Shown here: piece after piece, positions 833-955 of the stretch
Layout: each line of letters opens with the position of its first letter
How positions within the stretch are numbered: position 1 is the stretch's first letter
Source of the DNA: a virus
Taxonomy: Duplodnaviria > Heunggongvirae > Uroviricota > Caudoviricetes
Reading direction: 5' to 3' (one strand)
Length of the DNA stretch: 6,616 nucleotides
Virus record (IMG/VR): IMGVR_UViG_2874920711_000007
Location: 1-6,616 of that record
The notes under the pieces: generated by a model
The model's database searches: none
Seen by the model: the letters and a program-made list of their open reading frames with translations, nothing else
Told to the model about the DNA's origin: nothing
Translations under genes and position numbers: made by a program

Positions 833-955
833 AACTTCCCCAGTGTAATAACAGGATATCGCTGCCCGGAGGGCTGGGGGTATTTAATCACACTTGATGC
901 AAACCGACGATCGATATGATGCTATCGATCGTCATAAACTATACAAACTGATTAT
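833..955 (-). promoter_or_regulatory. Intergenic regulatory region upstream of com-mom (putative Pmom)
   Basis: 123-bp gap between the upstream chaperone gene stop (956) and the com ATG (832). It contains the GATC palindrome (906..933), a G+C-rich block ATACCCCCAGCCCTCCGGG (865..883, minus-strand reading) and an extended -10-like TGtTATTAC (845..853). In Mu this position holds the Dam/OxyR- and C-controlled mom promoter. Exact promoter elements are unverified. Confidence 0.5.
906..933. repeat. Perfect 11-bp inverted repeat GACGATCGATA / TATCGATCGTC with 6-bp spacer, carrying two GATC (Dam) sites
   Basis: Verified base by base on the given sequence: arms 906..916 and 923..933, spacer TGATGC, GATC at 909-912 and 927-930. 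Lies downstream of the tail operon and upstream of com. Confidence 0.7.

Follow-up and report, generated by a model that had tools for sequence, protein, structure and literature searches.

In phage Mu, Dam methylation and the host protein OxyR govern the mom promoter, Pmom. According to the earlier work cited in passages of PMC3378877 and PMC2909390, the three GATC sites of Mu region I are bound by OxyR when they are unmethylated, and OxyR also binds hemimethylated Pmom. Related switches are known from other loci. Methylation of GATC sites abolishes OxyR binding at gtr and agn43 (PMC2909390), and half-sites that lie 32 bp apart from centre to centre are canonical for the reduced form of OxyR (PMC4856963). 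Both gtr of P22 and opvAB of Salmonella carry GATC pairs inside OxyR half-sites that are arranged at the spacing of reduced OxyR, and there, too, methylation blocks binding.

We analysed a putative counterpart of these switches in a window of 6,616 nucleotides, that is, the whole stretch of viral DNA under study (IMG/VR record IMGVR_UViG_2874920711_000007). All genes of the window lie on the minus strand, and the features that concern us here are collected in Table 1. The com-mom DNA is 81% identical to that of phages Mu, D108 and SfMu, with the similarity to Mu ending at the start of com. Beyond this point, the DUF4376 gene is followed by tail-fibre and baseplate genes, and, unlike in Mu, a gin invertase gene is absent between the tail-fibre genes and com in the family to which the window belongs. 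A complete relative, 99.7% identical to the window over positions 780-1080, is present in E. coli FDAARGOS_943 as a full Mu-like prophage with a transposase, a B-like ATPase, Gam, a Mor/C-family activator, and head and tail genes. The window is collinear with this prophage from position 1 to 6269, whereas position 6270 marks a jump, the sequence from here on corresponding to the left end and the C-terminal portion of a Mu-like repressor gene, with 92% identity to E. coli RM9088. This break in collinearity indicates that ~27 kb were deleted, including the gene for the Mor/C-type activator; furthermore, the baseplate J gene appears to be frameshifted, as it is split into two overlapping open reading frames. 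Because the activator gene was lost, the switch may have nothing to regulate in this particular prophage. The window operator is probably a copy, orphaned not long ago, of a module that functions in intact relatives, and the functional inference applies to the family.

Table 1. Coordinates of the genes and sequence elements around the inverted repeat upstream of com-mom
Feature	Positions	Strand	Description
mom	1..696	-	DNA modification enzyme; Pfam PF25680 (E = 1e-75) and annotation of relatives; the window starts at the mom stop codon
com	647..832	-	Zinc-ribbon translational activator of mom; Pfam PF10122 (Zn_ribbon_Com)
Conserved block	862..889	-	GATTAAATACCCCCAGCCCTCCGGGC; by position and conservation, in the place of the Mu C-activator box/-35 region
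Putative OxyR half-site B	897..911	-	ATCGTCGGTTTGCAT; 5/10, weak; left element ATCG overlaps the proximal GATC
Left arm	906..916	+	GACGATCGATA; holds GATC 909-912, predicted promoter-proximal Dam site, corresponding to Mu GATC site 2
Spacer	917..922	+	TGATGC (GCATCA on the mom strand); non-palindromic, variable centre of the element
Right arm	923..933	+	TATCGATCGTC; holds GATC 927-930, predicted promoter-distal Dam site, corresponding to Mu GATC site 1
Putative OxyR half-site A	928..942	-	ATAGTTTATGACGAT; 8/10; right element CGAT overlaps the distal GATC
DUF4376 tail-fibre-assembly-like gene	956..1582	-	Pfam; occupies the place of Mu gin

Between the start codon of com (832-830, minus strand) and the stop codon of the DUF4376 gene (956-958), a repeat search found an inverted repeat with two arms of 11 nt that are 100% complementary and separated by 6 nt. 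The dyad starts 22 nt past the DUF4376 stop codon and lies 73 nt upstream of the com ATG, with its pair of GATC sites located 77-98 nt upstream of that ATG. The site search and the gene positions confirmed the original prediction as to where the two GATCs lie, namely between the tail gene and com, and the sequence that it wrote out (11-bp arms around a 6-nt spacer) was correct, but its title of a 28-bp perfect palindrome overstated the symmetry since the spacer TGATGC is not self-complementary. The inverted repeat itself is real and exceeds what chance would produce. Among 1000 first-order Markov simulations of the window, 22 contained a perfect inverted repeat of 11 nt with a spacer of at most 20 nt (mean 0.026), close to the analytic expectation of 0.033 per window, and the arrangement CGATCG-N8-16-CGATCG was found once in 40 kb where 0.01 occurrences were expected.

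Upon comparison with the Mu mom upstream region, we found it likely that the inverted repeat is the core of a Dam-sensitive OxyR operator for com-mom, orthologous to region I of Mu. The original prediction had proposed this comparison, and it was borne out: MAFFT placed the dyad on Mu GATC sites 1 and 2 without introducing a gap, both CGATCG motifs being invariant, as is the TATAG upstream of them, and by hand count 20 of 27 positions were identical between Mu (GACGATCGAATCAATTAAATCGATCGG) and the window (GACGATCGATAGCATCATATCGATCGT). Read in the direction of mom, the Mu sequence runs ...ATAGAAAACGACGATCGAATCAATTAAATCGATCGGTAATACAGATCGATTATGCCCC... and that of the window ...ATAGTTTATGACGATCGATAGCATCATATCGATCGTCGGTTTGCATCAAGTGTGATTAAATACCCCC.... 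The starts of the two GATCs are 18 bp apart in the window as they are for sites 1 and 2 in Mu, where this spacing is confirmed independently by the finding that PvuI, which recognizes CGATCG, releases an 18-bp fragment from Mu Pmom (Fis paper, PMC3378877). The contexts of Mu sites 1 and 2 are identical CGATCG motifs, the element ATAG-N7-CGATC is shared with the window, and in both cases the region directly precedes the late-activator box (putative in the window) of com-mom. Hence, in its position before this box, as well as in its homology and spacing to sites 1 and 2, the dyad resembles the Mu region. According to the original prediction, Mu lacks such a dyad. This was wrong, as Mu carries at the corresponding position a 24-bp imperfect palindrome, CGATCGATTTAA/TTGATTCGATCG, in which 10 of 12 positions pair, with its dyad symmetry likewise centred between GATC sites 1 and 2, and a variant of the Mu family, L022, reaches 11 of 12.

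The two regions also differ in several respects. Mu has three GATCs where the window has two: the third GATC of Mu, which adjoins the C box 13 bp after site 2, was absent in 23 of 23 window-family sequences, which have GCATC at this place. The arms are complementary at 10 of 12 positions in Mu as compared to perfect arms of 11 bp in the window. In Mu, gin lies upstream and its stop codon falls between sites 1 and 2, whereas the window family lacks gin. The distance from the promoter and its box to the ATG is 17 nt shorter in the window than in Mu, and the operator is set back from the activator box by an additional 6 bp, roughly half a helical turn, which could change how, or whether, OxyR interferes with activation.

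To follow the element across relatives, we used the Mom protein to gather 43 IMG/VR viral loci and 3 genome loci, plus 8 E. coli loci, among which two main families stood out: the window family, with 23 distinct upstream sequences, and the Mu family. While the window family has two GATCs 18 bp apart within invariant arms (CGATCGATA and TATCGATCG), the Mu family has three GATCs at spacings of 18 and 13 bp. Both GATCs were invariant in all members of the window family, in the Mu family, and in L010 (Scandinavium), L011, L051 and L052, four divergent loci that have kept the 18-bp pair; in L050, site 2 was kept and the other GATC lies 31 bp upstream instead of 18. The element ATAG-N7-CGATC was common to the window family, the Mu family, L051 and the host locus agn43.

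Upon computing the pairwise diversity of 22 distinct window-family sequences, we obtained values of 0.000 for the arm core, 0.008 for the full arms and 0.045 for the whole proposed OxyR site, as compared to 0.159 for the loop and 0.27 for the 7 nt between the site and the activator box. For coding positions, the diversity amounted to 0.09-0.145 at third codon positions and 0.016-0.018 at first and second ones. All 18 of the 18 core arm columns were invariant versus 52% of third codon positions, and the chance of 18 invariant core columns is ~1e-5 if columns are assumed to be independent, a figure that is only a rough guide because the 22 sequences share ancestry. The loop, by contrast, was variable in the window family, its first positions showing up to 4 states and its first two reading GC, GA, AC, TC, CC or CA. 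Conservation begins ~5-15 nt upstream of ATAG regardless of which gene lies upstream, be it DUF4376, a tail-fibre gene (L008/L038) or other sequence (L016/L025), and it reaches asymmetrically past the dyad to the upstream ATAG and to the downstream B element.

The two GATCs persist in a prophage that otherwise avoids this sequence. The window contains 7 GATCs versus 22.8 expected, and the complete relative prophage contains 43 versus 126-149 expected (observed/expected 0.29), an approximately 3-fold depletion that makes GATC the most depleted of the sixteen palindromic 4-mers in that prophage. Despite this depletion across the prophage, both GATCs of the dyad were kept, and they form the closest GATC pair in the complete relative. 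The dyad thus shows what would be looked for in a cluster of Dam targets, with GATCs that are retained and conserved amid avoidance of the motif.

We considered that the dyad may be functional while its perfection is not, such that an imperfect OxyR/Dam dyad was perfected by a quasi-palindrome template switch and then inherited, leaving a relic in the decaying prophage seen here. Imperfect versions of the dyad indeed occur in Mu, in L022, in agn43 and, as judged by eye, in L010 and L011, and the outermost arm positions vary in two relatives, as would fit a perfection without function; the ~27-kb internal deletion and the frameshifted baseplate J gene would fit a prophage in decay. Yet the 18 core columns are invariant in 22 sequences while their neighbours vary freely, which argues for ongoing selection on the arms, and we regard such a neutral origin of the symmetry as quite improbable. 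It concerns the extra symmetry alone, and is compatible with a Dam-sensitive OxyR operator at this site.

For OxyR recognition, we scanned sequences with the half-site consensus ATAGnTnnnAnCTAT (Toledano et al. 1994; a passage of PMC2909390 gives it with a misprint), pairing two copies whose starts were 21-23 or 31-33 bp from each other. The 31-bp spacing was included only once it had been noticed in the sequences, and at the 22-bp spacing alone the site scores 12/20. In agn43/flu of K-12, which served as an 801-bp positive control, the top placement scored 16/20 at a spacing of 32 (ATAGAATAAAACGAT ... ATCGTTTATATCGAT), and in the Mu locus (2.4 kb) the top placement scored 14/20 at a spacing of 31 (ATAGAAAACGACGAT ... 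ATCGGTAATACAGAT) and spans the three GATCs of the known regulatory region. Within the window, 4 of 78,792 placements scored at least 13/20, and two of these were the site at 897-942 on its two strands. This joint-best placement (13/20, spacing 31) combines half-site A at 8/10 with half-site B at 5/10 and is homologous to the Mu placement, sharing its register and its 31 bp between half-site starts, although half-site B scores 7/10 in Mu versus 5/10 in the window. Of the 42 distinct relatives scanned, most likewise had their best placement in this register, the divergent L011, L050 and L052 among them. Since 6.6 kb should contain several half-sites of 8/10 by chance, what lends support is the combination with register, spacing and conservation.

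Several further observations connect the inverted repeat with the composite site. The palindrome and the 46-bp composite site share one centre (919/920). The end of half-site B is GCATC, at the position occupied by the third GATC in Mu and agn43, and this half-site is degenerate yet conserved in the family (diversity of 0.045 versus 0.27 in the next 7 nt). Reduced OxyR reportedly protects Mu Pmom from about -104 to -46 (a finding ascribed to Sun and Hattman in 1996), and this footprint, when placed on an estimated transcription start, would presumably extend over both half-sites, A and B, and a few bp beyond. We also examined the palindrome as a single OxyR half-site, and this reading was rejected, as ATCG and CGAT are 12 nt apart and not 7, and, owing to the variable loop, conservation does not extend to the ATAG made up of the arm and the first loop base.

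A close structural match besides Mu is agn43 of E. coli, which has the same architecture (ATAG-N7-CGATC ... TATCGATCG-N7-nGATC), half-sites at a like distance (32 bp as compared to 31) and an inner dyad, CGATCAATA-N7-TATCGATCG, that is imperfect but nearly identical to the CGATCGATA-N6-TATCGATCG of the window. It differs in having three GATCs (spacings of 19 and 13 bp) where the window has two, a higher consensus match (16/20), and a half-site B of 8/10 versus 5/10. Also in function the two loci would diverge, as the agn43 operator controls a constitutive host-gene promoter and gives heritable ON and OFF phases, whereas the target in the window is an activator-dependent phage late operon. At gtr and opvAB, three or four half-sites allow for alternative occupancy and OxyR also activates, whereas in the window a single pair of half-sites is evident.

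Recognition by OxyR leaves the symmetry of the inner ATA/TAT and the outer GA/TC positions unexplained, and the dyad might instead be the operator of another dimeric protein, either a phage regulator or host Fis or SeqA, with OxyR irrelevant or secondary in this family. The perfect 11-bp symmetry indeed exceeds what the OxyR consensus demands, and the invariance of the arms, the degeneration of half-site B and the loss of the third GATC would also fit such an operator. Furthermore, Fis protects -107 to -84 in Mu (PMC3378877), which on the estimated transcription start overlaps the distal part of the region. However, the core of the symmetry, CGATCGATA/TATCGATCG, hardly differs from the inner part of the OxyR site of agn43, which is established by experiment, the conservation extends asymmetrically to ATAG and to the B element as predicted for an OxyR tetramer site, and no candidate for another regulator was identified. 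We give little credence to this alternative.

In our preferred reading, the operator would span 897-942 and read, on the mom (minus) strand, ATAG-N7-CGATC, 14 nt, and GATCG-N7-GCAT. It would contain a pair of OxyR dimer half-sites with 31 bp between their starts, which fits the extended binding mode of reduced OxyR, with the two GATCs situated in the inner recognition elements of the half-sites (CGAT and ATCG). The region would read as a dyad because these inner elements, CGAT of A and ATCG of B, are mirror images about the centre of the tetramer site, and in the window family this symmetry would happen to be perfect over 11 bp. When the GATCs are unmethylated, and in part also when they are hemimethylated, host OxyR would bind just upstream of the late-activator box and block the activator-dependent recruitment of RNA polymerase, thereby keeping the toxic mom off. 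Full Dam methylation (A910/T911 and A928/T929) would exclude OxyR and allow for late expression. We infer OxyR binding, its methylation sensitivity and its repressive effect at the window operator by homology with Mu and agn43. The proposal that the GATCs are Dam sites of a Mu-like, methylation-sensitive OxyR region is supported by homology, motif and constraint, and the element appears to be a relative of the known Mu switch that keeps toxic mom off rather than a new kind of element.

If this is true, the Dam/OxyR safeguard on toxic mom would be a conserved module, present in at least two lineages of Mu-like prophages as well as in more distant enterobacterial relatives, and, as it occurs in several lineages, it would not be peculiar to Mu itself. 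The module would share its exact architecture with the phase-variation operator of agn43. The window family would then represent a naturally occurring variant in which two GATCs are combined with a perfect inner dyad and a proximal half-site that is degenerate, and as such a convenient test case for the number of methylation sites that are needed to exclude OxyR, for the positions that OxyR reads in its extended (reduced) binding mode, and for whether the inner symmetry matters. Otherwise, it is an expected regulatory feature of a known operon.

The same inverted repeat could also act at the level of RNA. As a hairpin of 11-12 bp after the DUF4376 stop codon, on transcripts that run out of the tail-fibre operon, it might serve as an intrinsic terminator, an insulator or a stabiliser of the 3' end, either as its main or as an added function. 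The stem-loop is strong (-17.4 kcal/mol, much stronger than the -8.5 kcal/mol of the Mu stem), its 81-nt context folds at -24.4 kcal/mol (z = -4.6), it stands 22 nt past a stop codon and is followed by GUUUG, or by GUUUUA in the L016/L025 lineage, and without gin the late tail genes of the window family directly abut com. The tail GUUUGCAU, however, is poor, with 4 U in 8 positions and 3 of them consecutive, and a terminator scan called the dyad neither in the window nor in the UUUU-tailed relative L016. Its only two matches, at 865-878 and 995-1015, were on the strand opposite to the genes. At two operon boundaries, the same prophage family uses canonical terminators in which GCCGGTAAATCCGGC is followed by T7. 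Compared to an intrinsic terminator, the dyad shares a stable stem-loop after a stop codon, but it has no adequate U-rich tract after the stem, and the inner half of its stem is AT-rich. No compensatory changes were found in the stem, and DNA-level recognition explains the invariance of the arms equally well; the Mu-family homologues have no tail and a weak stem, yet show the same GATC geometry; and a search of the entire window against Rfam at gathering thresholds was negative. Since mom is a late function, as are the tail genes, we see no obvious need for insulation. The weak intrinsic terminator of the original prediction thus found little support, the hairpin being stable but its U tail poor and the scan without a call, and nothing requires partial termination at this site. 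Overall, we deem an RNA function unlikely. A palindrome that acts on two levels in the gin-less family, as a Dam/OxyR site on the DNA and as an RNA attenuator or insulator, or a cruciform, before the toxic com-mom genes, strikes us as a rather remote prospect, as does the variant in which a regulator other than OxyR reads the dyad.

Downstream of the operator, the conserved block at 862-889 is tentatively taken as the putative late-activator site of the com-mom promoter. Its activator box, GATTAAATACCCCC, differs from that of Mu, GATTATGCCCCAATAACC. The Mor/C-type activator of the window family is 32% identical to Mu C, which fits with a different activator box. A sigma-70 promoter scan of positions 600-1300 found nothing, and neither a convincing -10 element nor a transcription start of com-mom could be placed, as expected for an activator-dependent promoter. 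A search for the putative activator box TTAAATACCCCC in the complete relative was weakly informative, with 36 matches at up to 3 mismatches versus 25 expected. One plausible box was located upstream of the protease (I-like) gene of the complete relative, where a similar GTAAATACCCCT is followed by a T6 run.

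At a divergent Mom locus (L050), half-site A has its GATC within the left element, ATCGATTAAATCAAT, and 31 bp separate it from the GATC of half-site B further downstream. This placement thus keeps the 31-bp half-site spacing but not the 18-bp GATC pair or the dyad. Both in Mu and in the agn43 control, half-site B forms a strong dyad on its own (AATCGATCGGTA/TACAGATCGATT with 11/12 positions complementary in Mu, and TTATCGATCG/CGATCGATAA with 10/10 in agn43), whereas the window family, i.e., the window and its relatives carrying the two-GATC dyad, has its perfect symmetry between one half-site and the other. 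The E. coli locus bR_120_Kylling (L009) has kept the dyad-bearing regulatory region but has lost com and most of mom by deletion, with conservation stopping directly after ...GGTTGTGAT.

GATC is scarce in these prophages. Across the complete relative prophage (L056, from E. coli FDAARGOS_943), we counted 43 GATC sites versus 126-149 expected, a ratio of 0.29 or ~3-fold depletion, by far the strongest among the sixteen 4-mer palindromes, and the window holds 7 versus 22.8 expected. A further GATC pair, with its sites 6 bp apart, lies within the repressor-gene fragment of the window.

The complete relative contains two identical copies of a canonical terminator, GAAGCCGGTAAATCCGGC and then T7, one upstream of an endolysin-like gene and the other upstream of a protease gene. 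In the window, the conserved putative activator/-35 block contains a small inverted repeat, which reads GCCC-TCC-GGGC along the mom strand and which the terminator scan marked on the plus strand as terminator-like.

The window prophage is a deletion remnant. Collinearity with the complete relative stops within the gp46 gene, and beyond the junction lie the C-terminal portion of a gene for a Mu-like repressor ("DNA-binding protein") and the left end, in a stretch with 92% identity to E. coli RM9088. Approximately 27 kb are absent, with the transposase, the Mor/C activator, and head and tail genes among the losses. The baseplate J/gp47 gene, a single 1077-nt gene in the relative, is split in the window into two overlapping open reading frames (ORFs) in different frames; a 2-nt difference in alignment lengths points to a frameshift, by which the gene has probably become a pseudogene. 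One segment within the tail-fibre region finds no BLAST match in the relative, which is 97-99% identical elsewhere, and is thus probably an exchanged host-range cassette. We observed neither an invertible segment nor gin in the window, where the tail-fibre and assembly genes form two tandem pairs, all on one strand.

Coordinates of features in the window and in the loci compared with it
Feature	Sequence	Position	Strand
Small inverted repeat	window	865-878	
Segment lacking a match	window	2995-4174	
Baseplate J/gp47	window	5131-6206	minus
Its two ORFs	window	5131-5895; 5607-6206	minus
Collinear segment	window / L056	1-6269 / 252-6538	
Deletion junction	window	~6269/6270	
Sequence past junction	window / L057 (RM9088)	6270-6616 / 4001-4355	
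Further GATC pair	window	6358-6367 (6358, 6364)	
GATC count	L056	251-35930	
Terminator copies	L056	17960-17979; 25672-25691	minus
Divergent Mom locus	L050	1240-1305	
Half-site B dyad, Mu	L001	1021-1045	
Half-site B dyad, agn43	L058	432-458	
Dyad-bearing region	L009	1480-1620
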